Positions 17,035-30,194 of a DNA stretch of 64,000 bases are shown piece after piece (positions within the stretch are counted from its first letter, which is position 1; the number at the start of each line of letters is the position of its first letter). Under the pieces are notes generated by a model. The model saw only the letters and a program-made list of their open reading frames with translations, had not been told where the DNA came from and ran no database searches. The stretch is from an uncultured Spirochaetota bacterium. Lineage in GTDB: Bacteria > Spirochaetota > Spirochaetia > SZUA-6 > Fen-1364. The stretch covers positions 192,001 through 256,000 of the forward strand of contig CAWAHW010000001.1 of NCBI GenBank assembly GCA_963781885.1, given 5' to 3'. The translations under genes were made by a program, and so were the position numbers.

Positions 17035-18051
17035 ATGGTCAAGCTTGTCAGTATCAACAGGAAATCGAAAACACCCGCTTACCGACAGATCGTCCAGCAG
17101 ATAGAGCTCGCCATCAAGCAGGGAAGGCTGAAACCAGGCGAAAGGCTGCCGCCGGAACGGGAGCTTGCAACAGGACTTGAGGTTGCGCGCGGCACGGTGA
17201 CACGGGCATATGCCGAGCTTGTCCGCCTGTCGCTCATCGACGTCGCGCAGGGCCGGGGCAGCATCGTCATTGCCGGCGACACCAAGGATGCCGTGGGGAG
17301 AAAGGAGCAGGCAGAGGGCCTGATCCGCCGGCTGATCGACTCGCTTGCACGTCTGAAATTCGGCTACCCCGAGATGCGCGCCATGGTGGACCTTGCAATC
17401 GCCGGACAGGAGGAGGCGCTTACCGGCCTGAATGTCGCCGCGGTGGACTGCAACCCCGAAACACTCGGTATCTTCCAGCGGCAGATCGGGCTCCTCTCCC
17501 GCGTCAGCATCCGCGCGTACCTTCTTTCGGACATTGCAGGCGATCCCGCTCCCGCGGAGCGTCTCCGCGATTTCGACCTCCTCCTCACCACGTCCACCCA
17601 CTACGGCGATCTTTGCGCGCTCGCCCCGGGCCTCGTGCGGCGCATCCTCCAGGTCACGGTTGCACCGAGCCAGGAGACGGTGATGCGTCTGGCGTCGGTG
17701 CAGCAGGGCGCCCGGATCGGCGTGCTCTGCGAGAGCGCGAAATTCCTCGCCATCGTCCAGCAGCGCCTGGCAGGGATGCACGTGAGCGGTTCGGTGGACG
17801 CGCTTTTCTGGCCGCGCGCGCCCGGGGCGCTTTCGGATTTTGCCTCGAACAGGCAGGTCCTCATCCTTCCGCCCGGCGGCCACGGCTCGCCGTCGCGCGA
17901 AGAGGCGCGCGCCCTGCTTTCCTTCTCCGAGCAGGGGGGAACGGTCATCGTCTTCGACTACCAGATCGAGAAAGGATCGCTCGTGTACGTTGAAGAGCGC
18001 GTGCGCGATCTGCTGGAGAGCCGGGCCGGCGCCGGAAGGGATGCCCGATGA
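17035..18051 (+). CDS. GntR-family transcriptional regulator
   Basis: N-terminal wHTH PAYRQI...LKPGERLPPERELA...VARGTVTRAY...QGRGS; long C-terminal effector region. Confidence 0.9.
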   Translation: MVKLVSINRKSKTPAYRQIVQQIELAIKQGRLKPGERLPPERELATGLEVARGTVTRAYAELVRLSLIDVAQGRGSIVIAGDTKDAVGRKEQAEGLIRRLIDSLARLKFGYPEMRAMVDLAIAGQEEALTGLNVAAVDCNPETLGIFQRQIGLLSRVSIRAYLLSDIAGDPAPAERLRDFDLLLTTSTHYGDLCALAPGLVRRILQVTVAPSQETVMRLASVQQGARIGVLCESAKFLAIVQQRLAGMHVSGSVDALFWPRAPGALSDFASNRQVLILPPGGHGSPSREEARALLSFSEQGGTVIVFDYQIEKGSLVYVEERVRDLLESRAGAGRDAR

Positions 18052-18485
18052 ACGCCCCCACCATCGTACTGGGCGTCATTGGCGCCGACTGCCACTCCGT
18101 CGGCAACAAGATCCTCGATGCGTTCTTCACGGACAAAGGCTTCCGGGTGGTGAATCTCGGGGTCATGGTGTCGCAGGACGAGTTCATCGACGCCGCCATT
18201 GAAACAGGGGCTGCCGCGATACTCGTCTCGTCGCTGTACGGGCATGGCGAGATCGACTGCGAAGGATTCCGCGGCCGGTGCGTGGAGCGCGGGCTGGAGG
18301 AGATCGTCCTCTACGTCGGGGGCAATCTGGTCGTGGGCAAGACGCCGCGCGCGGCGGTCGCGGAAAAGTTCTCCGCCATGGGTTTCGACCGCGTTTTTTT
18401 CCCCCGCGACGACCTGGAGGAAGCTGCCCGGCTTCTTGGCGAAGACATCCGTGCCCGACGTCAGGCAGTGGCGGGCCCTGCGTGA
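18048..18485 (+). CDS. glmS: Glutamate (methylaspartate) mutase subunit S, B12-binding
   Basis: GVIGADCHSVG (DxHxxG), VSSLYGHGEIDC, YVGGN. Confidence 0.95.
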   Translation: MNAPTIVLGVIGADCHSVGNKILDAFFTDKGFRVVNLGVMVSQDEFIDAAIETGAAAILVSSLYGHGEIDCEGFRGRCVERGLEEIVLYVGGNLVVGKTPRAAVAEKFSAMGFDRVFFPRDDLEEAARLLGEDIRARRQAVAGPA

Positions 18486-19899
18486 AACGCGTCCTCAGCG
18501 TCGACATCGGCTCCACGTGGACAAAGGCCGCGCTTTTCGGGCTTGACGGGGCTGCCCCGGTGCTGGGCACGACCCAGGTGCCGACCACGCAGGACGACCT
18601 TTCCCGGGGGTTCACGGCCGCCGCCTGCGCGCTGTTGGGGCTCGCTCCCGACACCCCTGCATCGCGCATCGGCGCGGAGCTTCCCGTCCACGTCTGCTCG
18701 TCGGCAAAGGGAGGGCTTGCAATCGCGGCCGTGGGCATCGTGCCCGACCTCACGGTGAGCGTTGCGCGACTCGCCGCGGCCTCGGCAGGCGCGCGGATCG
18801 CCGCCACGACCGCGTACAAGATCGGCGCGGCCCAGCTCGCGGAGATCGAGGCCGTGAAGCCCGACATCGTGCTTCTTTGCGGCGGTACCGACGGAGGCAA
18901 CGAGAGCTGCGTCCTGCACAACGCGCGCGCCCTTGCCGCAATGACGGGAAACGCGGCCATCGTCTACGCCGGCAACGCGGCACTGGGAGCGGAAGTACGC
19001 GGCATCCTTGCGGGCAGGTCGCTCCAGGTCGTGCGGAACGTGATGCCCAATGTCGGGGTGCTCGACATCGAGCCGGCGCGCGCCGCGATACAGTCCATTT
19101 TTCTGGAGCGCATCGTGGAGGGGAAGGGGTTGGAGGAAGTGCGCGCCACGAGCGCGGGGGATCTCCGGCCCACGCCCCTTGCCGTCTACGAGCTTCTGGA
19201 AGCAGTTGCGGCATCCGGCGCGGCGCCCCCCCTGCTCCTCATTGACATGGGGGGAGCCACCACTGACATCTACTCGCTCTGCCCTTCCTTCTCCCCGGAG
19301 GAAGGCACCGTGCTGCGCGGCATCGAGCCCCCCGGCTCATGCGGACCGTGGAGGGAGACCTTGGTCTGCGCGTGGGCGCCGCAGCGGCCGCGGAGACCGG
19401 GAGCGCCTATATTGAAACGCGCCTCAAGGAAACAGGGACACCGCCAGAGGCATTCGCAGCGTGGGTGCAGCGCGCCACCGGAAGCCCCGAGGTCCTCCCG
19501 GGGAACGAGACCGAACAGATGTTCGACGACATACTCGCGGAGGCATGCCTCTTCCATGCCCTCTGCCGGCACGCCGGCACCATGGAGGAAGTCTGGACGC
19601 CGGGAGGCAAGGTGCGCGTCCAGCGGGGCAAGGACCTGCGCGGCGTCGCCCTTATCGCGACAAGCGGCGGCTGGCTTTCCCGCCGGGGATCCAACGCGCC
19701 GCTCCTGCGCGCCCTTGCCGCGGCGCGGGGCGACACGCGCGCCGTGCGGCTTCTTCCCGCCGCGCCCCGGGTCGCGGCCGATGCGCGCTATCTCCTGCCC
19801 CTGCTGGGCAACGTCGTTTCCGCGTACCCGACGGAGGCAACCCGACTCGCCGCGGAGTGCATGGGAGCGCTCATTCCCGAGGAAACGCATGCGCGATAG
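18482..19899 (+). CDS. glmL: Glutamate mutase reactivating factor GlmL/MutL (frameshift near 19330)
   Basis: DIGSTWTK, CSSAKGGL, GGTDGGN, DMGGATTDIYS; continues as RTVEGDLGLR…RHAG in the 19339..19899 frame after a C homopolymer. Confidence 0.9.
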
Positions 19900-21334
19900 G
19901 AAGATGCCCCTTGCAGACCTTCTTGCCGCGCGCCCGGCCGTTCTTTCATCCTGGCCCACGGGCGCCGGGGTGGACCTCGACGAAGCCTGCGCGTGGCAGG
20001 CGAAAATCCCCGCGGAAAAGCGCTTCTCCACGGCGATGCGCGCGGCGCGCGACGCCCGGCGCGTGCTCATCCAGCCGCGCGCAGGTGTGGCCCTCATCGA
20101 CGAGCATATCAGGCTCCTGAAGTACCTCGAAACAGAAGGGGAAGCGGATCTCCTGCCGACAACGATCGACGCCTATACCCGGCAGAATCGCTACGAGGAG
20201 GCCGCGCGGGGCATCGAGAAGTCGATCAACGCCGGCACCTCGCTTCTGAACGGCTTCCCCGCGGTCAATCACGGGGTTGCCGGCTGCCGGCGGGTCACGG
20301 AGAGCGTCAATCGACCGGTGCAGGTCCGCCATGGCACCCCCGATGCGCGCCTGCTCGCGGAGATCACCCTGGCAGGCGGATTCACGAGCTTCGAGGGCGG
20401 CGGCATCTCCTACAACATCCCCTACACCAAGAACGTGCCGCTCCCGAAGTCGCTGCAGGACTGGAAGTATGTCGACAGGCTCTGCGGGCTGTACGAGGAG
20501 AGGGGCTCGCCGATCAACCGCGAGCCCTTCGGTCCGCTCACGGGCACGCTCGTGCCGCCGTGCATCGGGCACGCCGTGGCGATCATAGAAGGCCTCCTGG
20601 CGCTGGAGCAGGGCGTGCGCTCGATCACGCTCGGCTACGGCCAGGGCGGCAACATGGCGCAGGACGTGGCGGCGATCGCGACCCTCCGCGAGCTTGCGGA
20701 GGAGTACTTCCAGGACGCCGGCTTTTCCGACTATGAGCTCAGCATCGTGTTCCATCAATGGATGGGGGGGTTCCCGGAGGATGAGTCGCGCGCATTCTCC
20801 ATCATCTGCTGGGGCGCCGCGGTGGCGGCCTTCGGCGGGGCCGACAAGGTGATCGTGAAGACCCCGCACGAGGCGATGGGCATCCCCACCCGGGAGGCGA
20901 ATGCACAGGGTCTGCGGGCCACGCGGCAGACAATCGCCATGCTCGCCGACCAGCCGCGCATCGAGACGCCGGAGGTGCTTCGCGAGAAGGAGATCATCCG
21001 CCGCGAGGTGGACTGCCTGCTGCCGCGCGTGCTCGCGCTCGGCTCGGGCGACACCGCCGCGGGCGCCGCGGCCGCATTCGAGGCCGGCATCCTCGACGTC
21101 CCCTTCGCCCCGTCGGTGCATACGCGCGGCAAGATACTTCCCATGCGCGACAACGAAGGGTGCATCCGCATCTTCAACCCCGGCGCCGTGCCGCTCGATG
21201 ACGACATCGCGGCGCTGCACCGGGAAAAGCTGGCAGAGCGCGCCCGGGCGGAAGGCCGGATCGTTTCCTTCCAGATGGTGACGGACGATATCTACGCCGT
21301 CAGCAAGGGCAGGCTCGTCGGGAGGCCCCGATGA
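19889..21334 (+). CDS. glmE: Glutamate (methylaspartate) mutase subunit E
   Basis: QPRAGV, LPTTIDAYTRQN, LNGFPAVNHG, RHGTPD, EGGGISYNIPY, HQWMGGFP, KTPHEAMGIP. Confidence 0.95.
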   Translation: MRDRKMPLADLLAARPAVLSSWPTGAGVDLDEACAWQAKIPAEKRFSTAMRAARDARRVLIQPRAGVALIDEHIRLLKYLETEGEADLLPTTIDAYTRQNRYEEAARGIEKSINAGTSLLNGFPAVNHGVAGCRRVTESVNRPVQVRHGTPDARLLAEITLAGGFTSFEGGGISYNIPYTKNVPLPKSLQDWKYVDRLCGLYEERGSPINREPFGPLTGTLVPPCIGHAVAIIEGLLALEQGVRSITLGYGQGGNMAQDVAAIATLRELAEEYFQDAGFSDYELSIVFHQWMGGFPEDESRAFSIICWGAAVAAFGGADKVIVKTPHEAMGIPTREANAQGLRATRQTIAMLADQPRIETPEVLREKEIIRREVDCLLPRVLALGSGDTAAGAAAAFEAGILDVPFAPSVHTRGKILPMRDNEGCIRIFNPGAVPLDDDIAALHREKLAERARAEGRIVSFQMVTDDIYAVSKGRLVGRPR

Positions 21335-22581
21335 AAATCAGACGCGCGCTCTTTTCTCCCGGTCGCTCGGCTTTCTTCTTCGACGATCAGCGCGCCATCA
21401 AGGCCGGCGCACCTCACGACGGCTTCGACTACGAGGGAGCGGCTGTCACGCCCGGCTTCCGCCGGGTCCGGGTTGGCGGGGAATGCATCTCCGTGATGTT
21501 GATGCTGGATGATGGAAGCGTCGCGCTGGGAGACTGCGCGGCCGTGCAGTATTCGGGCGCCGGGGGCAGGGACCAGCTCTTCCTCGCCGCGGATTTCATC
21601 CCGGTCCTGGAAAAGCACGTGCGGCCGCTGCTGGAAGGCGCGAGGGTGGACGGGTTTCGCGCCATGGCGGCCCGCATCGAGGCGGTGCGCGTGAACGGGC
21701 AGCCCCTGCACACGGCCATCCGTTACGGAGTGAGCCAGGCTCTCCTGGATGCGCGCGCGCACGCGGAGCGCTGCACGGCCTGTGAAGTGATCTGCCGGGA
21801 GTGGGGACTGCCCGTGGATGCCTCACCCGTGCCGATATTCGGGCAGTCGGGCGACAATCGCTATGAGAACGTGGACAAGATGATTCTCAAGGCAGTCGAC
21901 GCCCTGCCGCACGGCCTCATCAATTCCGTGGATGAGAAGCTGGGCCGTGATGGGGAAAAGCTGCGCGAGTACATTCGGTGGCTCGCGGCAAGGATCGGGA
22001 AGCTTGCGCCGCATCCCGGATACCTGCCGGACCTCCACATCGACGTGTACGGGACAATCGGCCTCATCTTCGACGACGATCCCGTGCGCGTCGCCGCGTA
22101 TCTCGCCTCTCTGCAGCGGGAGGCAGGTCCGCATCGGCTGTACATCGAGGGGCCGGTGGACGTCGGGGAAAAGGCGCATCAGATGGAAGCGCTGCGCGCC
22201 ATCAAGGCGGAGCTTGAGCGCCGGGAGTCCCCCGTGCGCATCGTGGCCGACGAGTGGTGCAACACCCTGGAGGACGTGCGCGACTTCACGGATGCCGCTG
22301 CCTGCCACATGGTGCAGATCAAGACCCCGGACCTCGGCGGCATCCAGAACATCGTGGAGAGCGTCCTGTACTGCCGGGCGCACGGCATGGAGGCCTACCA
22401 GGGCGGCACGTGCAATGAGACGGATGTCTCGGCGCGCTGCTGCGTGCAGCTTGCCCTTGCGACCCGCCCGATGCGCATTCTGGCGAAGCCCGGCATGGGT
22501 TTCGACGAGGGATACATGATCGTGAAGAACGAGATGGAGCGCACGCGCGCGATCATCTCCGCCCGGGAGGTGAAAAAGTGA
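21331..22581 (+). CDS. mal: Methylaspartate ammonia-lyase
   Basis: FFDDQRAI, GDCAAVQYSG, HTAIRYG, LPHGLIN, HIDVYG, VADEWCNT, QIKTPDLG, GGTCNETD, KPGMG. Confidence 0.95.
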   Translation: MKIRRALFSPGRSAFFFDDQRAIKAGAPHDGFDYEGAAVTPGFRRVRVGGECISVMLMLDDGSVALGDCAAVQYSGAGGRDQLFLAADFIPVLEKHVRPLLEGARVDGFRAMAARIEAVRVNGQPLHTAIRYGVSQALLDARAHAERCTACEVICREWGLPVDASPVPIFGQSGDNRYENVDKMILKAVDALPHGLINSVDEKLGRDGEKLREYIRWLAARIGKLAPHPGYLPDLHIDVYGTIGLIFDDDPVRVAAYLASLQREAGPHRLYIEGPVDVGEKAHQMEALRAIKAELERRESPVRIVADEWCNTLEDVRDFTDAAACHMVQIKTPDLGGIQNIVESVLYCRAHGMEAYQGGTCNETDVSARCCVQLALATRPMRILAKPGMGFDEGYMIVKNEMERTRAIISAREVKK

Positions 22582-23952
22582 GCGTGCACGAGTTCCGGGT
22601 CCTTTCCCCCACGGCCATACTCGGGTACGGCTTTCCCGAGGAGTCCTTCCGAAACGGTATCGCGAAAGAGGCCCGACCTGATCGCCTGCGACGCCGGCTC
22701 CACCGATCCCGGGCCCTACTACTTGGGAAGCGGCAAGTCCTTCACCGACCGCGCATTCGTGAAGCGGGACCTCACCTTCATGCTCGTGGAGGGCGTACGG
22801 CGTGGCGTTCCCGTCGTGGTGGGCACGGCAGGAGGGTCGGGGGCCGCGCCGCACCTGGCGTGGTGCCGCTCCATCATTGAAGAGATCGCAGCGGAGCACC
22901 GCTTGAGCTTCACGATGGGTGTCATTTCCTCTGACGTCAGCAAGCAGACCGTGAAGCAGGCACTCGCGGCCGGACGTATCCAGGCCCTGCCCTTTGTTCC
23001 GCCGCTGGATGAAAAGGCCATCGACGAATCCCCGCACATCGTGGCGCAGATCGGGTGCGAGCCGCTGCAGAAGGCGCTGGCCGCGGGATGCAATGTCGTC
23101 CTGGCAGGTCGCTGCTACGACCCGGCCAACTTTGCGGCCCTTCCCATCATGAAGGGCTTTCCCGAGGGCCTCTGCCTGCACATGGGAAAGATCCTCGAGT
23201 GCGGCGCCATCGCCGCAACGCCGGGAAGCGGAGCCGACTGCGCATTCGCCACGATATACGATGACCATTTCGTGCTGGAGGCGCTTTCGCCGAAGCGGCG
23301 CTTCACGCGCGAATCCGCGGCCGCGCATACCCTCTACGAAAAGTCCGACCCCTACAGGCTGCCGGGCCCCGGCGGCCTGATCGACCTCACGGGCTGCTCC
23401 TTCACCGACCTGGGTGAGGGGCGCGTGGAGGTGCGGGGCAGCCGGCACGAGAAGACGCCCGCCTACTGGGTGAAGCTGGAAGGGGCGCGGCGGATCGGCT
23501 CGCGATCCATCAGCATCGCGGGGGTGCGCGACCCGATCATGGTGCGCGACATCGAGCCCATCCTGGAGTCGGTGCGCCAGCAGGTGCGCGCCATGGCAGG
23601 GAACACGATTGCCGGCGAGCTTTTCTTTCACGTCTACGGCAAAAACGGCGTCATGGGGCCGGGCGAGCCGGTGCGCGCATCGACCTCCCACGAGCTGGGA
23701 ATCGTGATGGAGGCAATCTCGCCCACGCAGGAGCAGGCCGATACGCTCGTGAGCGTCACCCGGTCCACGCTCCTGCATTACGGCTATCCCGGACGCATCT
23801 CCACGGCTGGCAACCTCGCCTTCCCCTTCTCCCCTTCCGACATTCGGGCAGGCGACGTCTACGGCTTCTCGATCTACCATCTCATGCAGGTGGACGACCC
23901 GGCCGGCTTCCCGCTCGAAATGGTGCGCATCAGGAATGGAGCGGCATCATGA
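22578..23952 (+). CDS. AtuA/DUF1446-family protein (frameshift near 22666)
   Basis: LSPTAILGYGFP, then DAGSTDPGPYYLGSG, GTAGGSGA, GRCYD, HMGKILECG, AHTLYEKSDP, STAGNLAFPFSP; one extra A in an AAA run. Confidence 0.85.
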
Positions 23953-24269
23953 AAAAAAGCATCATGGAGGTGGCGCGCGTCATCAGGTCCAAGAACTCGG
24001 GTCCCTACGAGCTCACGCTGGACGTCATGTTCAGCGACAGGAAACACTACGAGCTCTTCCGCGACCGCGGAATAATTTCCAAGGACCTCATCGGCAGGCT
24101 CTACGGCGTGGCGCCGTCCGAGATACTCGGCATCGTCTGGTTCGAGCCCTGCAATGCCGTGAAGGCGACCATCCGCAGGCGCATTGCGTCCGGCGCACCC
24201 GGTGACACCGACATCTACGGCGCGCAGCAGCATGCGCCGCTTCTTTCCATCGAGTTCGAGGAAGGATGA
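23949..24269 (+). CDS. DUF4387-family protein
   Basis: IRSKNSGPYELTLDV and GDTDIYGAQQHAPL motifs; usual partner of DUF1446. Confidence 0.9.
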   Translation: MKKSIMEVARVIRSKNSGPYELTLDVMFSDRKHYELFRDRGIISKDLIGRLYGVAPSEILGIVWFEPCNAVKATIRRRIASGAPGDTDIYGAQQHAPLLSIEFEEG

Positions 24270-25243
24270 CGATGGCAGACAAGCCCGATATCAGCCAGCT
24301 CCAGCAGCAGTTCTCCCACCCGACCTCATCCTCCGAGACGCTGATCTATGCCACGTATTACGCGCCGCGCGGCAGGCAGCGCCTCTACATGCTGGGCGCA
24401 GAGCTCTCCCATCGCTACCTCTACCCCAGCGATCTGCTTGTCGGCATCATAGGAGCGGAAGGCTCGGGAAAGTCCACGCTCATCAAAGGTCTTTTCCCCG
24501 GTCTGGAGCTCACGAACGACGACGACGGCGTGAACATCCGGCCTGCCCAGCTCTACGCCTTCACGCCGGACGACTACTTCGCCCCGCACACCTTCCACAT
24601 CGACGTGCGCTACGAGCGCGCCTTCCATCAGCCCTGGCAGATCGCGGAAGCGGTCACCACGGCGGTGTCCCACGGCCGCCGGGTCATCGTGGAGCATTTC
24701 GACCTGCTCTACGAAACTCTCGGCTACAACGCGCAGATCATCTTCGGCATCGGCGAGGAGGTGATCGTGGCGCGGCCCGGCGTGTTCGGCCCCTTCCCCG
24801 CGTCGATCAAGGCCGTGGCGGACAAGACGATACGCTACCGTCTCATGGCGCACTCGGCGGAGGACATCACCAGCTACGTGCTGGAGCGCGACTACAACTA
24901 CAGGATCCCCGTGCATCACTCCGACGTGAAGCACGGCTTCGTCATCAGCTTCCAGCAGGAACCGCGCATCGACCTCGTGCAGCTGGAGCTGCGCGTGAAG
25001 GAGATCATCGCGGCCGACGTGCCCATCGCGCCGGCAGGCGAGGACCGCATCAGCATCGGCGAGCATCAGATACCCTGCACGGGCACGCGCACGCACGTGC
25101 AGCACTCCGGCCAGATCGAGAACTTCCGCCTGCTGAAGGAGTTCCGCTACCACCCGTTCCAGCGCGAGTACATGCTGGTGGGAATCGTCGGCAGCCACGA
25201 GCCCGCCGGTTACGAAGAAATCACGCGCGTGCCCGAGCTGTAG
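24266..25243 (+). CDS. P-loop NTPase fused to an AlaRS/ThrRS second-additional (AlaX-like) domain
   Basis: Walker A GAEGSGKST; Walker-B-like RVIVEHFD; RLMAHSAED and PCTGTRTHV resemble the HxxxH/CxxxH editing motifs. Confidence 0.75.
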   Translation: MTMADKPDISQLQQQFSHPTSSSETLIYATYYAPRGRQRLYMLGAELSHRYLYPSDLLVGIIGAEGSGKSTLIKGLFPGLELTNDDDGVNIRPAQLYAFTPDDYFAPHTFHIDVRYERAFHQPWQIAEAVTTAVSHGRRVIVEHFDLLYETLGYNAQIIFGIGEEVIVARPGVFGPFPASIKAVADKTIRYRLMAHSAEDITSYVLERDYNYRIPVHHSDVKHGFVISFQQEPRIDLVQLELRVKEIIAADVPIAPAGEDRISIGEHQIPCTGTRTHVQHSGQIENFRLLKEFRYHPFQREYMLVGIVGSHEPAGYEEITRVPEL

Positions 25244-25278
25244 AGCGGCGGCAGCGCGCAGTTTGCCGGGAGGACGAC

Positions 25279-26469
25279 ATGAAACTTGCAGAGCGATTCT
25301 CCAAGCTGGGCACGGAAACAGCCTTTGCCGTCGCGGATGAAAGCAGGAAGCTCGCCCAGACGGGTCTCCGCATCTTCCCCTTCCACATCGGCGACTTGGA
25401 CCTGAAGACCCCGGCGAATATCATGGACGCGGCCACCCGCGCGATGCGGGAAGGAAAGACCGGCTACTGCTCCAACTGGGGCATCCCCGAGCTTCGCGAG
25501 GCCGTTGCCGCGGACATCAACCGCAGCCATGGGACGGGCTACACGGCGGCGAATGTCGCCATCCAGCCCGGCGGCAAGCCGGTCATCCACAAGTTCATTC
25601 TTTCCTTCATGAATCCCGGTGACGAAGTCCTGTACCCCAGCCCCGGCTACCCGATCTATGAGTCTGCCATTGGCTTTCACGGTGGAAGGCCCTTGCCTTA
25701 CAGCTACGTGGAAACGCCGCAGGGTTTCGCGATGAATGTGGCGGACATTGAAAGGAAAATCACCCGTGCAACGCGCCTCCTGATCTTCAACAACCTGCAG
25801 AATCCCACGGGCGCGGAGGCAAGCCCGGAAGAGCTCGCCGAGATCGCCCAGCTGGTGATCCGCCACGATCTCACCGTCTTGTGCGACGAAGCCTATTTCG
25901 ATATCCGCTACGAGGGGCAGTCGCAGTCGCTGGCGTCCCTGCCGGGCATGGAGGAGCGCTGCCTCATTCTGTACACGTTTTCGAAGAAGTACGCGATGAC
26001 GGGGTGGAGGCTGGGAGCGGCGGTCGGGCCGGCGGCCATGGTGGAGGCCGTCGCGAAGCTCAACGTGAATGACGAGTCCTGCACAAACCACTTCGTCCAA
26101 TACGGCGGCCTGGAAGCGCTCACGGGGCCGCAGGATGGCGCCCGGCAGATCATCGAGGTCCTGCGCCAGCGCCGCGACCGCTGCCACGAGCTTGCAAACG
26201 CGGTTCCCGGCATGCGATGCGGCCGGCCCCGCGCGACGTTCTACCTCTTTCCCAATGTGAGCGGCATCATGCGCGCGATGAAAATCGACGACTACGAAAA
26301 GTTCCGCCGCGCGATCCTGGAGGCAACGGGTGTCTCCTTCTGCACTCGCATGCATTTCGGCAGGCCGCTGCCGGGGGAGACCGAGCGCTACATCCGTCTG
26401 TCGTATTCGGGCATCGACGTGCGGAATATCGAGGAAGGGCTGGGTCGGCTGAAAGACTACCTGGGATAG
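25279..26469 (+). CDS. PLP-dependent class I/II aminotransferase (AspC-like)
   Basis: GGAGG RBS; NNLQNPTG, DEAY, TFSKKYAMTGWRLG. Confidence 0.92.
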   Translation: MKLAERFSKLGTETAFAVADESRKLAQTGLRIFPFHIGDLDLKTPANIMDAATRAMREGKTGYCSNWGIPELREAVAADINRSHGTGYTAANVAIQPGGKPVIHKFILSFMNPGDEVLYPSPGYPIYESAIGFHGGRPLPYSYVETPQGFAMNVADIERKITRATRLLIFNNLQNPTGAEASPEELAEIAQLVIRHDLTVLCDEAYFDIRYEGQSQSLASLPGMEERCLILYTFSKKYAMTGWRLGAAVGPAAMVEAVAKLNVNDESCTNHFVQYGGLEALTGPQDGARQIIEVLRQRRDRCHELANAVPGMRCGRPRATFYLFPNVSGIMRAMKIDDYEKFRRAILEATGVSFCTRMHFGRPLPGETERYIRLSYSGIDVRNIEEGLGRLKDYLG

Positions 26470-26534
26470 CAGCGCCGACGGCGCCGGGTCTCCTTGCTTG
26501 TCCCGCACGCCGCAGTCCTTTATGATCCCGCATC

Positions 26535-29237
26535 GTGGCTGTTGCATCCGCGGTACAGGACTATCTGCACGTCACCCCGGCGGGAAACCTGCGCCCCGCC
26601 CCTGACTGGGCCCCGGCCGCGGCGAGCTCACCCGAAACCGTGCCGTCGTCCACGCTTCCGCGCGCCCGGGAGGCTTTCAAGGCCAGCGCCGCTGCCGGCC
26701 TCTTCGAGCTTGCCGCGCATCCCACCAGCGGCGGCCTTCCCCCGCAGCTTGCGTACTGGCGCGATTTCGCCGCGCGCTACCTGAGCGAGCGCTGCCATAC
26801 GCCCACGGGCGTCGCGGAGCTGCAGCCGGTTCCTCCGCCCTCCCCCGCGGACACGATGACCCTGCTCTTCAGCGTGCCGCCCCTGCAGGGCGCCGAGTAC
26901 CTGACGGACGCGGTGCTCCACCGACTCTGGACGGAGCTGGATGAGTGGACCTGCGCGGAGGCCGTGCGCGCCGGCGGCCTGGAGAAGTTCCTGTCCGCGC
27001 GCGCGCCCTTGTGGCGGCAGGTCGGCCGGGTCTGCTTCCACCTGGCGGAAAATAAAAAGGATCCCGAGTTCCCCTTTGCCTTTCTTGCCACGTATGCGCC
27101 GCGCGTCTCCTCCTCCACCGGCATTCGTTACCAGCCCCTTTCCCGCGCGCTCCAGGAGTTTGCCGGGGAAAGAAATCGCAAGGCTTTGATCCATCTCCTC
27201 ACACCCGTCGAGCGCGCGGCAGCAGCGAGCCCCGTCATCCGGCAGCTCGTGGATTCACGCGACATCTACCATCCCCTTGCCTGGACGGCCGACGAGGCTT
27301 ATCGCTTCCTCCAGGAGATCCCCCTGTACGAGCAGAGCGGGGTGCTCGTGCGCGTGCCGGACTGGTGGACCCGGCGGAGCCGGCCGATGGCGGCCGTCAG
27401 GATCGGGTCGCACACGCACGGCGTGCTGGGCCTGGATGCGCTGCTGGACTTCCAGGTCGACGTGGCCGTCGGGGACCAGACGCTCACGGAAAAAGAGATC
27501 AATCGCCTTCTTGCCGGGTCTGACGGGCTTGTCTTCCTGAAGGGCCGGTGGGTCGAGGTCGATACAAAGAAGCTCTCCGAGGCGCTCGCGCACTGGCAGC
27601 GTCTCCGGGAAGGCGCCGGCAAGGACGGCATTTCTTTCGCCGAGGGAATGCGCCTCCTCGCGGGGGCATCTGAAGATCTTGCCGCCCCCGGGGTTGAGGC
27701 GGCGGCATGGTCCTTCGTGGAAGCAGGGGCGTGGCTGAAGGAGATCCTGGAGCAGCTGCGGTCTCCCGAGGCACTGCAGACGGCACTCCCCGGCCGGGAG
27801 CTTCACGCTACGCTCCGCCCCTACCAAGAGGCGGGGGTGCGGTGGCTGCGCCTCCTCACGGGCCTGGGCCTGGGCGCCTGTCTTGCCGATGACATGGGGC
27901 TGGGAAAGACCATACAGGTCCTGGGTCTCCTGCTTCTCCTGCGCGGCCAGAAGGCCCGTCCTTCACTGCTGGTTCTCCCGGCATCGCTCCTTGCCAACTG
28001 GAAGGCGGAGATCGAGCGATTCGCCCCGTCGCTCAGCGTTCGCTTCCTCCACCCGTCCTTCGGGCCGCTTCCCGCAGGTCCCGTCGCCGCCGACGAGCTT
28101 GCCCGCACCGACGCCGTGCTCACGACGTACGGCATGGTGCTTCGCCAGCCCTGGCTGGAGTCCGTCGACTGGACCCTGCTCGTGCTCGACGAGGCACAGG
28201 CCATCAAGAATCCCGGAGCGCGGCAGACCCGGGCGGTGAAACGCCTGCGCGCACGGATGCGTGTCGCCCTGACGGGAACACCGGTCGAAAACCGGCTCAC
28301 CGACCTCTGGTCGCTCTTCGACTTCCTCTGCCCGGGCCTCCTGGGAAGCCAGACGCGCTTCTCTTCCTTTGCAAAGGGGCTGGAAAAAAACCAGACCGAG
28401 CGCTTCCTCCCGATCCGAAATCTCGTGCGGCCGTACATCCTCCGACGGATGAAGACCGACAAGGCGGTCATCGCCGACCTGCCGGACAAGACGGTCGTGC
28501 CGGCCTGGTGCGGCCTCACAAAGGAGCAGGCGGCGCTGTACAAGGGCGTCGTGGACAGGCTGGCCGACAGCCTCAAGGATCGGGAAGGCATCCAGCGCCG
28601 CGGCGCGGTCCTTGCGGCCCTGCTTTCGCTCAAGCAGGTCTGCAATCATCCCTCCCATCTCCGCGGGGATGCGCGCTGGGATCCCGCGGCGAGCGGAAAG
28701 TTCGCGCGGCTTGCCGAGATCGGGGAGGAGATCGCCCAGCGCCAGGACCGCGCCCTGGTCTTCACGCAGTTCCGCGAGATGACCGAGCCTCTTGCGGCAT
28801 TCCTGGCGGGAGTATTCGGCAGGCCGGGCCTCGTCCTCCACGGCCAGACGCGCGTGGCGGAGCGGCAGAAGCTCGTGGAAGCATTCCAGGCCGATGACGG
28901 ACCGCCATTCTTCGTGCTCTCCCTGAAGGCGGGCGGCACGGGTTTGAATCTCACCGCGGCCTCCCACGTCATCCACTTCGACCGATGGTGGAACCCGGCC
29001 GTGGAAAACCAGGCGACGGACCGCGCCTTCCGCATCGGCCAGAAGAGGAACGTCCTTGTCCACACCTTCATCTGCCGCGGCACCGTGGAGGAGAAGATCG
29101 ACGAGCTGATCCGCCAGAAGACCGCCCTTGCCCGCGACCTCCTGGAAGCGGGCGGAGAAGCGCTCCTCACGGAGATGAGCGACGAGGAGCTTCTCTCGAC
29201 GATCTCCCTCGACCTCGAGCGCGCGCGGGCAGAATGA
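26535..29237 (+). CDS. SNF2-family (Swi2/Snf2) ATPase
   Basis: LRPYQ, LADDMGLGKT, LDEAQAIKN, LTGTPVENRL, SLKAGGTGLNLT, DRWWNPAVENQATDRAFRIGQ. Confidence 0.95.
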   Translation: MAVASAVQDYLHVTPAGNLRPAPDWAPAAASSPETVPSSTLPRAREAFKASAAAGLFELAAHPTSGGLPPQLAYWRDFAARYLSERCHTPTGVAELQPVPPPSPADTMTLLFSVPPLQGAEYLTDAVLHRLWTELDEWTCAEAVRAGGLEKFLSARAPLWRQVGRVCFHLAENKKDPEFPFAFLATYAPRVSSSTGIRYQPLSRALQEFAGERNRKALIHLLTPVERAAAASPVIRQLVDSRDIYHPLAWTADEAYRFLQEIPLYEQSGVLVRVPDWWTRRSRPMAAVRIGSHTHGVLGLDALLDFQVDVAVGDQTLTEKEINRLLAGSDGLVFLKGRWVEVDTKKLSEALAHWQRLREGAGKDGISFAEGMRLLAGASEDLAAPGVEAAAWSFVEAGAWLKEILEQLRSPEALQTALPGRELHATLRPYQEAGVRWLRLLTGLGLGACLADDMGLGKTIQVLGLLLLLRGQKARPSLLVLPASLLANWKAEIERFAPSLSVRFLHPSFGPLPAGPVAADELARTDAVLTTYGMVLRQPWLESVDWTLLVLDEAQAIKNPGARQTRAVKRLRARMRVALTGTPVENRLTDLWSLFDFLCPGLLGSQTRFSSFAKGLEKNQTERFLPIRNLVRPYILRRMKTDKAVIADLPDKTVVPAWCGLTKEQAALYKGVVDRLADSLKDREGIQRRGAVLAALLSLKQVCNHPSHLRGDARWDPAASGKFARLAEIGEEIAQRQDRALVFTQFREMTEPLAAFLAGVFGRPGLVLHGQTRVAERQKLVEAFQADDGPPFFVLSLKAGGTGLNLTAASHVIHFDRWWNPAVENQATDRAFRIGQKRNVLVHTFICRGTVEEKIDELIRQKTALARDLLEAGGEALLTEMSDEELLSTISLDLERARAE

Positions 29238-29247
29238 GGGAACGAGC

Positions 29248-30097
29248 ATGAGATACGGTTGGAAGCCATACGTGCCGGTCGGACAGCGCAGAAAGAGTGC
29301 CGAGCAGGCAATGGGGCGCCTGCGCAAAAGCGGCGTGTCCCTCCAGCCGGTGCGGATCGAAGGACGGCTCATCGCGCGCACCTTCTGGGGCAAGGCATGG
29401 TGCGATCACCTGGAATCCTACAGCGATTTTGAGAACAGGCTCCCTCGGGGAAGGACGTACGTGCGAAACGGCTCGGTCTGTCACCTGGAGATCCTGCGCG
29501 GCCGGGTCAATGCGAAGGTCCAGGGCAGCAGCATGTACACCGTGGCCGTCGACATCAGCCCACTGCCCGGTCCCTCCTGGAAGGCCATCAAGAAGCGCTG
29601 CACCGGCAGAATCTCCTCCCTGCTCGATCTCCTGCAAGGCCGGCTTTCCGCGGGTGTCATGGAGGTCGTGACCGACCGCGACGCGGGGCTTTTCCCGTCC
29701 CCGCGCGAGATCAGGATGCAATGCTCCTGCCCGGATTGGGCAACGATGTGCAAGCACGTGGCGGCCGTGCTCTACGGTGTCGGCGCGCGTCTGGACGCGC
29801 AACCGGAGCTTCTCTTTCCTGTTGCGCGGTGTCGACCACGAAGAGCTGATCGATGCGCGCGCGGAGGCTGCCGTGCGGGAAGTGGTGAGCGGCGGCAAGG
29901 GCAGGCGCATCGCGGAGAAGGACCTGGGCGCGATATTCGGCCTGGACGTGGATACCGGCGCGACGCCGCGGCGGAAACGCGCCGGAAAGGCGCCCCAAGA
30001 GAAAGCTGCGCCGCGGGCGAAGAGCAAAGTGAAGGGCACGCCTGCGAAGCAGGCGAAGAAGCCGCGAACAAAACCCCGACGGCCGGCCCGGAAATAG
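29248..30097 (+). CDS. SWIM zinc-finger protein (frameshift near 29817)
   Basis: RLPRGRTY, CSCPDWATMCKHVAA; continues LF-LLRGVD in the 29777..30097 frame, with a Lys/Ala/Pro-rich tail. Confidence 0.9.
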
Positions 30098-30194
30098 GCC
30101 CGGAAAATTGAGTTGCGATATTTACGTTTCGCATAAACCGCACATTTCAGCAGCGATTCGCAAAGGCGAATTAAGTTTCCAGTCGTTTACAGGA

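Follow-up and report, generated by a model that had tools for sequence, protein, structure and literature searches.

A TsaE-like ATPase joined to an AlaX-like editing fold in a Spirochaetota methylaspartate operon: a candidate accessory factor of the pathway

The subject of this report is a single gene in a 64,000-nucleotide stretch of DNA (hereafter the window) from an uncultured Spirochaetota bacterium (GenBank assembly GCA_963781885.1, contig CAWAHW010000001.1, positions 192,001 to 256,000 of the forward strand). The gene occupies an open reading frame (ORF) at 24266..25243 on the + strand, which also carries all of the motifs, domains and operon genes described below, and its product, which we label SADP and read as a soluble protein, combines a TsaE-like ATPase domain with an AlaX-like domain. 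A preliminary description of this DNA placed it within a methylaspartate operon, and glmS, glmL/glmE, mal, cmlA and cmlB are indeed all identified upstream of it. Two start codons are available: ATG 24266, which overlaps the TGA stop of cmlB (DUF4387) at 24267-24269 and gives 325 amino acids, and ATG 24272, which lies 2 nucleotides past that stop, has GAGGAAGGA 5 nucleotides upstream and gives 323. The second is the likelier start, because the database copy of SADP (100% identical) has 323 amino acids. Either start implies translational coupling to cmlB, as had been proposed; the coupled DUF4387 neighbour is real, but it is no longer a gene of unknown function, since it encodes the small subunit of citramalate lyase, CmlB. 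The SADP gene itself is real, with conservation far beyond chance.

The confidence of an AlphaFold2 model of SADP, built on an alignment of 41 sequences (mean predicted local distance difference test score, pLDDT, 86.6; predicted template modelling score, pTM, 0.79), suggests two domains in a fixed mutual arrangement, and structure searches name both of them. The N-terminal domain (24341..24790, residues 26-175) resembles the P-loop ATPases TsaE, YjeE and YdiB, and the C-terminal domain (24818..25204, residues 185-313) resembles the editing domains of AlaX, AlaRS and ThrRS. The top Foldseek matches were YjeE (expectation value, E, 4.9e-5) and AlaX-M 2e1b (E 5.5e-5). A VIA-align search against 48,161 representative chains, repeated in a second look with the same result, was headed by AlaX-M 9iuw (Z 13.9; root-mean-square deviation, rmsd, 2.5 Å over 121 residues, model residues 185-309), followed by 3kew, the ThrRS editing domain 1tje (Z 13.2), AlaX-S 1v7o (Z 12.8), AlaRS and ThrRS. 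The AlaX-S entries scored Z 12.8-13.7 against the C-terminal domain, and ranks 1-18 and 20 of the second look were occupied by AlaRS, AlaX, ThrRS or AlaX-S-based designs (Z 11.2-14.2). The fold of the C-terminal 130 residues is common to all of these (PF07973; 9iuw, 1wnu, 1v7o, 2e1b, 1tje), with rmsd 2.4-3.1 Å over about 120 residues. For the N-terminal domain (model residues 25-175) the matches were YdiB 5np9 (Z 10.4, rmsd 3.1 Å, 124 aligned residues), YjeE 1fl9 (Z 10.0) and TsaE (Z 9.8-10.3, with 6n9a_E at 10.3), those of Z 10.0-10.4 spanning 124-128 residues; P-loop proteins beyond this group scored Z about 8, ABC chains Z 7-8, and there was no kinase among the 50 entries listed by each fold search of the model. 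Since both halves have structural matches (Z about 10 and Z 12-14), the fusion of a P-loop nucleoside triphosphatase with an AlaX-like domain was correctly described, including its kinship with editing domains, and the P-loop half can now be specified as TsaE-like.

In sequence comparisons, the only Pfam match of the window SADP is to tRNA_SAD (PF07973; residues 263-292, 16.3 bits, E 0.0095), below the 24-bit cut-off. The same model is matched at E<=1 by 37 of 41 members of the family (best 3.4e-5), and the TsaE model (PF02367) by 34 of the 41 at that threshold (best 0.0025); the window SADP is not among the 16 matches of the TsaE model at E<=0.1 within its own genome. Searches of NCBIfam and PDB sequences with SADP gave P-loop-level matches only. 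Neither phmmer with the whole protein (best match an ABC ATPase, E 8.4e-4) nor a profile of the C-terminal domain (five weak matches, best EF-1beta, E 0.016) found AlaX, or a solved structure of SADP, among the PDB sequences. When SADP was compared with the TsaE of the same genome by hhalign, the Walker A motif and H111-x-D113 were aligned (E 0.0011, probability 20.5%). An identity as an ABC-transporter ATPase was considered and rejected, the Pfam ABC_tran match covering only residues 58-81 (model positions 13-36 of 137, E 0.012) and the protein having no SGG, so that the LSGGQ signature is absent.

Three motifs had been read from the sequence beforehand, and all lie where they were placed: Walker A, or P-loop, GAEGSGKST at 24452..24478 (residues 63-71), AHSAED at 24848..24865 (residues 195-200) and CTGTRTHV at 25076..25099 (residues 271-278). 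Three more can be added. HTFHIDVRYE (24587..24616, residues 108-117) contains the H111-x-D113 that aligns with the H-x-D of the genome's TsaE; RRVIVEHFD (24677..24703, residues 138-146) is a Walker B-like strand with invariant E143, H144 and D146; and HSD (24917..24925, residues 218-220) is an invariant triad in the region of the predicted pocket, in which it presumably has a part. That RRVIVEHFD serves as the Walker B motif is suggested by its position and by the 'EW' strand of TsaE, which we take to be its counterpart. The N-terminal domain thus shares with TsaE, YjeE and YdiB (1fl9, 1htw, 5np9, 6n9a), the ATPase of the bacterial t6A tRNA-modification complex TsaBDE, the small P-loop fold, Walker A and H-x-D. 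It differs from TsaE in its marginal sequence similarity, its fused second domain and an additional long invariant loop, GLFPGLELTNDDDGVN, for which no TsaE counterpart could be aligned, and the genome encodes its true TsaE separately.

The editing motifs of the C-terminal domain are altered. In structural alignments SADP residues 188/189 correspond to residues 1/2 of AlaX-S (five entries) and residue 187 to ThrRS residue 64 (two entries). With the motif histidines numbered, as we assume, H9/H13 in AlaX-S and H73/H77 in Escherichia coli ThrRS, H196 would lie opposite the first and D200 opposite the second histidine of HxxxH; the canonical HxxxH is absent (H196-S-A-E-D200), so that it would have become HxxxD in SADP. 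The canonical CxxxH is absent as well (C271-T-G-T-R-T-H277). In an hhalign comparison with the AlaX-like protein of the same genome (E 0.009, probability only 4.5%), C271 and H277 fall opposite the C..H of that protein, with a gap of two residues in between, and CxxxH would therefore have become Cx5H through an insertion that carries the invariant R275. The preliminary reading of these motifs as a variant of HxxxH/CxxxH was right in substance. As in AlaX, AlaRS and ThrRS, the histidine lies in the first helix and the Cys...His pair in the same loop as the editing motifs; unlike them, SADP has HxxxD, Cx5H with an inserted arginine and a Pfam score below threshold, carries an ATPase in front, is without C-Ala or another tRNA-binding domain, and sits in a catabolic operon. 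The pattern of conserved residues suggests a His/Asp/Cys/His site that, with the two invariant arginines R192 and R275, could hold a metal and a carboxylate-bearing ligand.

A natural reading of such a domain in such an operon is trans-editing, in which the AlaX-like domain would hydrolyse tRNA(Asp/Asn/Glu) mischarged with 3-methylaspartate, a free unusual amino acid to which the pathway gives a high flux, and the ATPase would serve in regulation or bring in the substrate. Support for the editing fold is good (Z 12-14), both domains have tRNA-related ancestors, and the invariant pocket residues may suit an acidic amino acid, whose side-chain carboxylate the two arginines could hold. We nevertheless consider this unlikely: HxxxH and CxxxH are both changed, an ATPase with intact motifs is always attached, and the protein is acidic (the family has a median isoelectric point of 5.9 and a median net charge of -8) and without an extra tRNA-binding domain. 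We know of no trans-editing factor that carries or needs an ATPase. The genome, moreover, already encodes AlaRS, ThrRS, a 429-amino-acid AlaX-like protein and a true TsaE (E 5.4e-33). There is a precedent in BesG and AlfB, deacylases that, according to a 2026 paper (PMC13149037), lie inside clusters for unusual amino acids and guard the producer against mistranslation. Like SADP these are AlaX-fold genes within a cluster that produces a non-protein amino acid; they are stand-alone deacylases of biosynthetic clusters (PMC13149037), whereas SADP has altered motifs and an ATPase and belongs to a degradative pathway with methylaspartate as an intermediate. The main text of that paper contains no occurrence of methylaspartate, glutamate mutase or ATPase.

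The residues of the putative ATPase and of the pocket are strictly conserved. Identity to the window SADP is 61-85% in the alignment of 41 sequences, which come from several phyla, or 64-89% as counted over the 40 homologues; in both this alignment and a second set of 51 the following are identical in every sequence: G63, G68, K69, S70 and T71 of Walker A; N84, D86, H108, H111, D113, E117, R138 and R139; E143, H144, D146, R192, H196, E199 and D200; and S219, D220, C271, G273, R275 and H277. The ATPase features are therefore intact, with Walker A, H111-x-D113 and E143 identical in 51/51 sequences. Divergent full-length members (31-46% identity) mostly retain H196, E199/D200, D220, C271 and H277, all of which are lost in one member, P0143. 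In a Spirochaetota genome that is 85% complete, the SADP match at G180:C676:2550-3464 contains three in-frame TAA codons and may be a decaying copy or an assembly problem.

A word-indexed search returned 3402 homologues at E<=0.001 among 5585 candidates. SADP was found in 436 matching places among 185,579 species genomes, in at least 9 phylum-level groups judging by record titles. A profile search without filters, run over 1.84 billion representatives, brought up 316 matches at E<=0.001, of which about seven were full-length clusters and the others fragments of the same family; it found no distant relatives, and the ESM Atlas gave only the family's own clusters. The family is therefore tight, without detectable distant relatives. 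Database names of the homologues include 'hypothetical protein', 'GTPase SAR1 family protein', 'TsaE', 'lantibiotic ABC transporter' and 'alanine-tRNA synthetase second additional domain-containing protein'. We found no literature on the SADP protein and none on DUF4387, nor any paper that combines methylaspartate ammonia-lyase, glutamate mutase, a hypothetical protein, a gene cluster and an ATPase.

SADP diverges about as slowly as two enzymes of the pathway, the mean distances being 0.43 for SADP, 0.42 for Mal and 0.44 for CmlA. This match to the pathway enzymes, together with an invariant predicted pocket containing H, D/E, C, H and two R, would also suit an ATP- and metal-dependent enzyme acting on a pathway metabolite or on a damaged side-product, that is, a metabolite-repair enzyme, which might for example clear wrong isomers or adducts of methylaspartate, mesaconate or citramalate. 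SADP adjoins genes for making or using citramalate in all of the cluster types described below, and optional presence is typical of repair enzymes. Yet no reaction suggests itself, all five steps of the pathway being accounted for; the fold searches listed no kinase among their 50 entries each, and TsaE-type ATPases are known as partner-activated switches, not as kinases or ligases. We regard a small-molecule enzyme as decidedly improbable.

The operon of SADP begins with a GntR-family regulator gene (17035..18051; Pfam GntR, E 9.3e-17), which occupies the same position in most related loci. It is followed by glmS, for the B12-binding subunit of glutamate mutase (18048..18485; NF002612, E 6e-63), and by one open frame at 18278..21334 that contains both glmL (Pfam MutL, residues 72-352) and glmE (Met_asp_mut_E, residues 577-1017). 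The true start of this frame is probably near 18490; there is no stop between its two parts, which are separate genes at other loci (e.g. L095). Next come mal, for methylaspartate ammonia-lyase (21331..22581; TIGR01502, E 5.7e-169; Pfam MAAL_N and MAAL_C), cmlA (AtuA-like), for the large subunit of citramalate lyase (22578..23952; ORF 22723-23952 matches PDB 9erq_A at E 4.4e-162), and cmlB, for the small subunit, directly upstream of SADP (23949..24269; Pfam DUF4387, E 6.8e-38; PDB 9erq_B, E 1.1e-31). The PDB titles of the two chains are 'Citramalate lyase, subunit A (cmlA)' and 'Citramalate lyase, subunit B (cmlB)'. As the AtuA/DUF4387 pair is the solved citramalate lyase CmlAB, SADP is the sole unexplained gene of the operon; the DUF1446 gene was still listed as unknown by Kronen and Berg (2015; PMC4682846).

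In the assembly cmlA is out of frame, with a break near 22668, its N-terminus being read from GTG 22578 and the remainder in the frame of ORF 22723-23952. A near-identical contig from run X3 reads 'ATCGCGAAA' straight into 22669, without the G at 22668, which would leave the cmlA frame open; the X1 contig ends at 22667 and is uninformative, and cmlA is intact in L002 and L003. The break could be an assembly error or a real frameshift. Immediately downstream of SADP lies an ORF of 445 amino acids on the opposite strand (25210-26547(-)), which has no Pfam or NCBIfam match and a 65% identical counterpart in L002. The interval between SADP and the next gene on the + strand contains no recognisable terminator-like site. 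The region 26535-30111 contains a SNF2-family helicase gene (SNF2-rel_dom, DUF3670, Helicase_C; NCBIfam 'SCO1167/SCO6262 family helicase') and then a gene for a SWIM zinc-finger protein; L002 alone shares these two genes, which have no relation to the operon.

The only step of the pathway that is not encoded in the window is mesaconase. The presumed mesaconase is the sole class I fumarase of the genome (G000:C1:259340-260173, in locus L082, ORF 1360-2985), which lies about 3.3 kb past the end of the window and 42 kb downstream of SADP, and shares 48% identity with its class I counterpart in the glm cluster of E. coli O157:H7. A HAD-family hydrolase gene is directly upstream of it (L082 244-1347).

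Elsewhere the two genes are commonly neighbours. Among the best 80 of the 436 relatives, drawn from contigs of one genome per species, cmlB is directly upstream of SADP in 63 of the 74 loci with at least 600 nucleotides of upstream sequence, and mal is upstream in 58 of the 63 with at least 3.2 kb. In 63 of the 74 loci with at least 600 nucleotides of downstream sequence, SADP is followed within 1.4 kb by a class I fumarase gene, in 57 of them at less than 300 nucleotides, and the gap to its first possible start codon is often -4 to +60 nucleotides. The 11 loci without a downstream fumarase are L002-L006, L009, L012, L020, L025, L035 and L055, the first five being the window's own clade. Apparent fusions of SADP with the fumarase in L007 and L074 were discarded, as the two lie in different frames and the long frame is merely open in G+C-rich DNA.

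A tree of 160 SADP sequences separates a Cit-type and a Cml-type clade, each with support 100. In the Treponema/Gracilinema/Breznakiellaceae group, SADP and the fumarase gene form an isolated pair, whose neighbours are genes for a histidine kinase and a sigma-54 response regulator. Five genomes without mal beside SADP were searched, and mal is elsewhere in four of them, including 3/3 of the Treponema/Gracilinema group. The stand-alone loci form one clade (support 99), and so represent a single evolutionary event. A second set of 80 metagenome loci, collected with a divergent SADP member as lead sequence, shows a CitDEF-type cluster in which mal, glmE, glmL, glmS, gntR, mesB, mesA, citF, citE and citD lie on one strand and SADP on the opposite one. 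Of the 42 such loci that span 5 kb or more, 37 have a citE-like gene upstream of SADP on the opposite strand; citC immediately precedes SADP in 28/68 loci and citXG immediately follows it in 21/56. In L131 (6877-10316), for instance, SADP lies between citC, the lyase-activating ligase gene, and a fused citX-citG, i.e. among lyase maturation genes. A third type of cluster, in the Pirellulales locus L010 (6322-12820), encodes Mal, an ATP-grasp/citrate-binding protein, a coenzyme A (CoA)-binding ligase subunit, an HpcH/CitE-type lyase, SADP and fumarase, and likely specifies a citramalyl-CoA route. SADP therefore accompanies three citramalate-cleaving systems, CmlAB, the CoA-ligase-like pair with an HpcH-type lyase, and CitDEF (between citC and citXG or divergent from citD), and is independent of which of them is present.

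These neighbourhoods count against the trans-editing proposal, since gene order follows the lyase and mesaconase genes and not those that make methylaspartate, and one lineage's SADP has left glmSLE-mal and kept the fumarase gene. They also bear on the possibility of a sensor or regulator, in which the pocket would sense glutamate or methylaspartate and the ATPase would turn on or off either an enzyme or a regulator, the GntR protein being an example of the latter. Most of the related clusters begin with a GntR-family gene, SADP stands beside a two-component system in one lineage, and free amino acids are bound by AlaX pockets, as in 1wnu, whose PDB title includes 'in complex with L-serine'. 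Against this, conservation over the whole surface and translational coupling to enzyme genes are unusual for a regulator, Pfam scans of SADP found no DNA-binding or signalling domain, and clusters with different regulators also carry SADP (a LysR gene is nearby in one). Such a role seems to us very improbable.

The distribution of SADP ties it to the pathway. Among 301 Spirochaetota genomes SADP occurs in 7 and Mal in 19, and Mal is present in 7/7 of the SADP carriers. In the phylum that includes G308 and G310 (87 genomes of unstated completeness), the two occur together in 32 genomes, SADP without Mal in 4 and Mal without SADP in 2, and both are missing from 49, so that 32/36 carriers have Mal. 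The co-occurrence with the glutamate mutase pathway foreseen in the preliminary description is thus found in both groups, and would fit trans-editing also. The reverse does not hold. SADP is missing from 12 of the 19 Mal-positive Spirochaetota, including 9/9 complete genomes of one genus; a further search at E<=0.01 in five of these 12 (three of the genus and two others) gave P-loop-level matches only. G279 has mesA, mesB, a glutamate symporter gene, glmS, glmL, glmE, mal, cmlA and cmlB and is without SADP, as is the chromosome of E. coli O157:H7, which has glmS, glmL, glmE, mal, AtuA, DUF4387, symporter, class I fumarase and cobO genes. The 314-amino-acid hypothetical gene that heads the E. 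coli O157:H7 cluster was examined as a possible homologue and dismissed (BLASTP E 5.5). These complete clusters, with a mesaconase and without SADP, indicate that no pathway enzyme strictly needs it. SADP is pathway-specific yet dispensable, whichever type of lyase or mesaconase is present, and is in this sense an optional helper; for a trans-editing factor its absence from the 12 genomes and from E. coli O157:H7 is a further difficulty. The complete Spirochaetota genome G070 lacks SADP. In its locus L094, a periplasmic-binding-protein/FecCD/ABC transporter set resembling an importer of cobalamin or iron comes after glmE and mal; glmE has a PD-(D/E)XK transposase gene beside it, and there is no adjacent glmL.

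The same distribution could point to glutamate mutase. TsaE docks on an actin-fold protein, TsaD, and by analogy the TsaE-like domain of SADP might dock on the actin-fold GlmL, or on GlmS, and assist the ATP-dependent exchange or loading of adenosylcobamide on the mutase. The adenosyl group or the lower-ligand nucleotide would then sit in the editing-type pocket, whose ancestral ligand is a 3'-terminal adenosine. In the genomes sampled, SADP is nearly confined to those with glutamate mutase and Mal, the operon offers a MutL/GlmL domain to match the TsaE-like fold, and SADP is independent both of lyase type and of whether the mesaconase is single-chain or split. However, the proposal is one by analogy; E. 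coli O157:H7, G058 and G279 have GlmL and are without SADP, and SADP is usually at the end of the operon far from glmS and glmL, and in one lineage separated from both. The genome also already has a PduO-type adenosyltransferase (E 1.5e-48), and it was on this account that we set aside the idea of SADP as a new cobalamin adenosyltransferase in place of the E. coli cluster's cobO. We think a B12-enzyme helper decidedly unlikely. Mirror-tree partial correlations over 25 loci were 0.34 for SADP-GlmL, 0.33 for SADP-GlmS and 0.21 for SADP-fumarase, in an analysis where known pairs were low (0.12 for GlmS-GlmE and 0.14 for CmlA-CmlB).

The reading that we favour, tentatively, is that SADP is an ATP-driven factor that maintains an enzyme of the pathway, with the mesaconase as the likeliest one. 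It is favoured because TsaE-type ATPases act as partner-activated switches and SADP is constrained as enzymes are, and because the neighbours of SADP are accessory genes (citC, citXG) in one clade and, in the other, a mesaconase gene to which it is coupled. The editing-type pocket would no longer handle aminoacyl-tRNA. Its ligand would instead be a dicarboxylate or amino-dicarboxylate of the pathway, free or bound to an enzyme and contacted by a metal ion and the two arginines, and the TsaE-like module would dock on the partner enzyme, where ATP hydrolysis would reset or maintain it, as TsaE does the TsaBD complex. Gene order points to the class I fumarase serving as mesaconase, an oxygen- and iron-labile enzyme, as the best candidate partner; GlmL/GlmS is the second candidate, by the analogy with the binding of TsaE to the actin-fold TsaD. 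The 'amino-acid sensor or hydrolase coupled to NTP (nucleoside triphosphate) turnover', which the preliminary description had offered as an alternative, comes close to this.

Several observations weigh against a maintenance factor of this kind. The genome's sole class I fumarase is 42 kb from SADP; most Mal-positive Spirochaetota, G279 and E. coli O157:H7 do without SADP; the stand-alone SADP-fumarase pairs belong to one clade; and in the CitDEF-type clade SADP is not adjacent to mesAB. Both domains are, moreover, of tRNA-related ancestry, which favours the trans-editing alternative, as do the AlaX-type deacylases embedded in unusual-amino-acid clusters that are described in PMC13149037. With somewhat less reserve, though still on the doubtful side of even, we suggest the broader proposal that SADP represents a first task outside tRNA proofreading for the AlaX/ThrRS editing fold, with a metal pocket and a TsaE-type ATPase servicing an enzyme of the pathway, be it mesaconase or the B12-dependent glutamate mutase.

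Accessory nucleoside triphosphatases such as GlmL/MutL, the diol dehydratase reactivase and MeaB are found in the operons of enzymes with fragile cofactors and are optional in some lineages. The likeness of SADP to these would be functional only, there being no kinship in sequence or fold except for the P-loop of MeaB.

The methylaspartate pathway is a textbook B12-dependent fermentation of glutamate, studied since the 1950s-60s, whose list of enzymes was thought complete. Once CmlAB is explained, SADP is the one conserved gene of the cluster without an assigned function, and it is conserved as the enzymes are. If it services mesaconase or the mutase, a tRNA-editing fold would have given rise to a new class of ATP-driven enzyme-maintenance factors. 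If instead it deacylates methylaspartyl-tRNA, self-protective trans-editing would extend from antibiotic-like biosynthesis to central catabolism, and SADP would be the first ATP-coupled editing factor. SADP may also matter for engineering of the methylaspartate pathway, because heterologous use of the pathway worked only after extensive strain evolution, according to a recent preprint (bioRxiv 10.64898/2026.01.16.699985).

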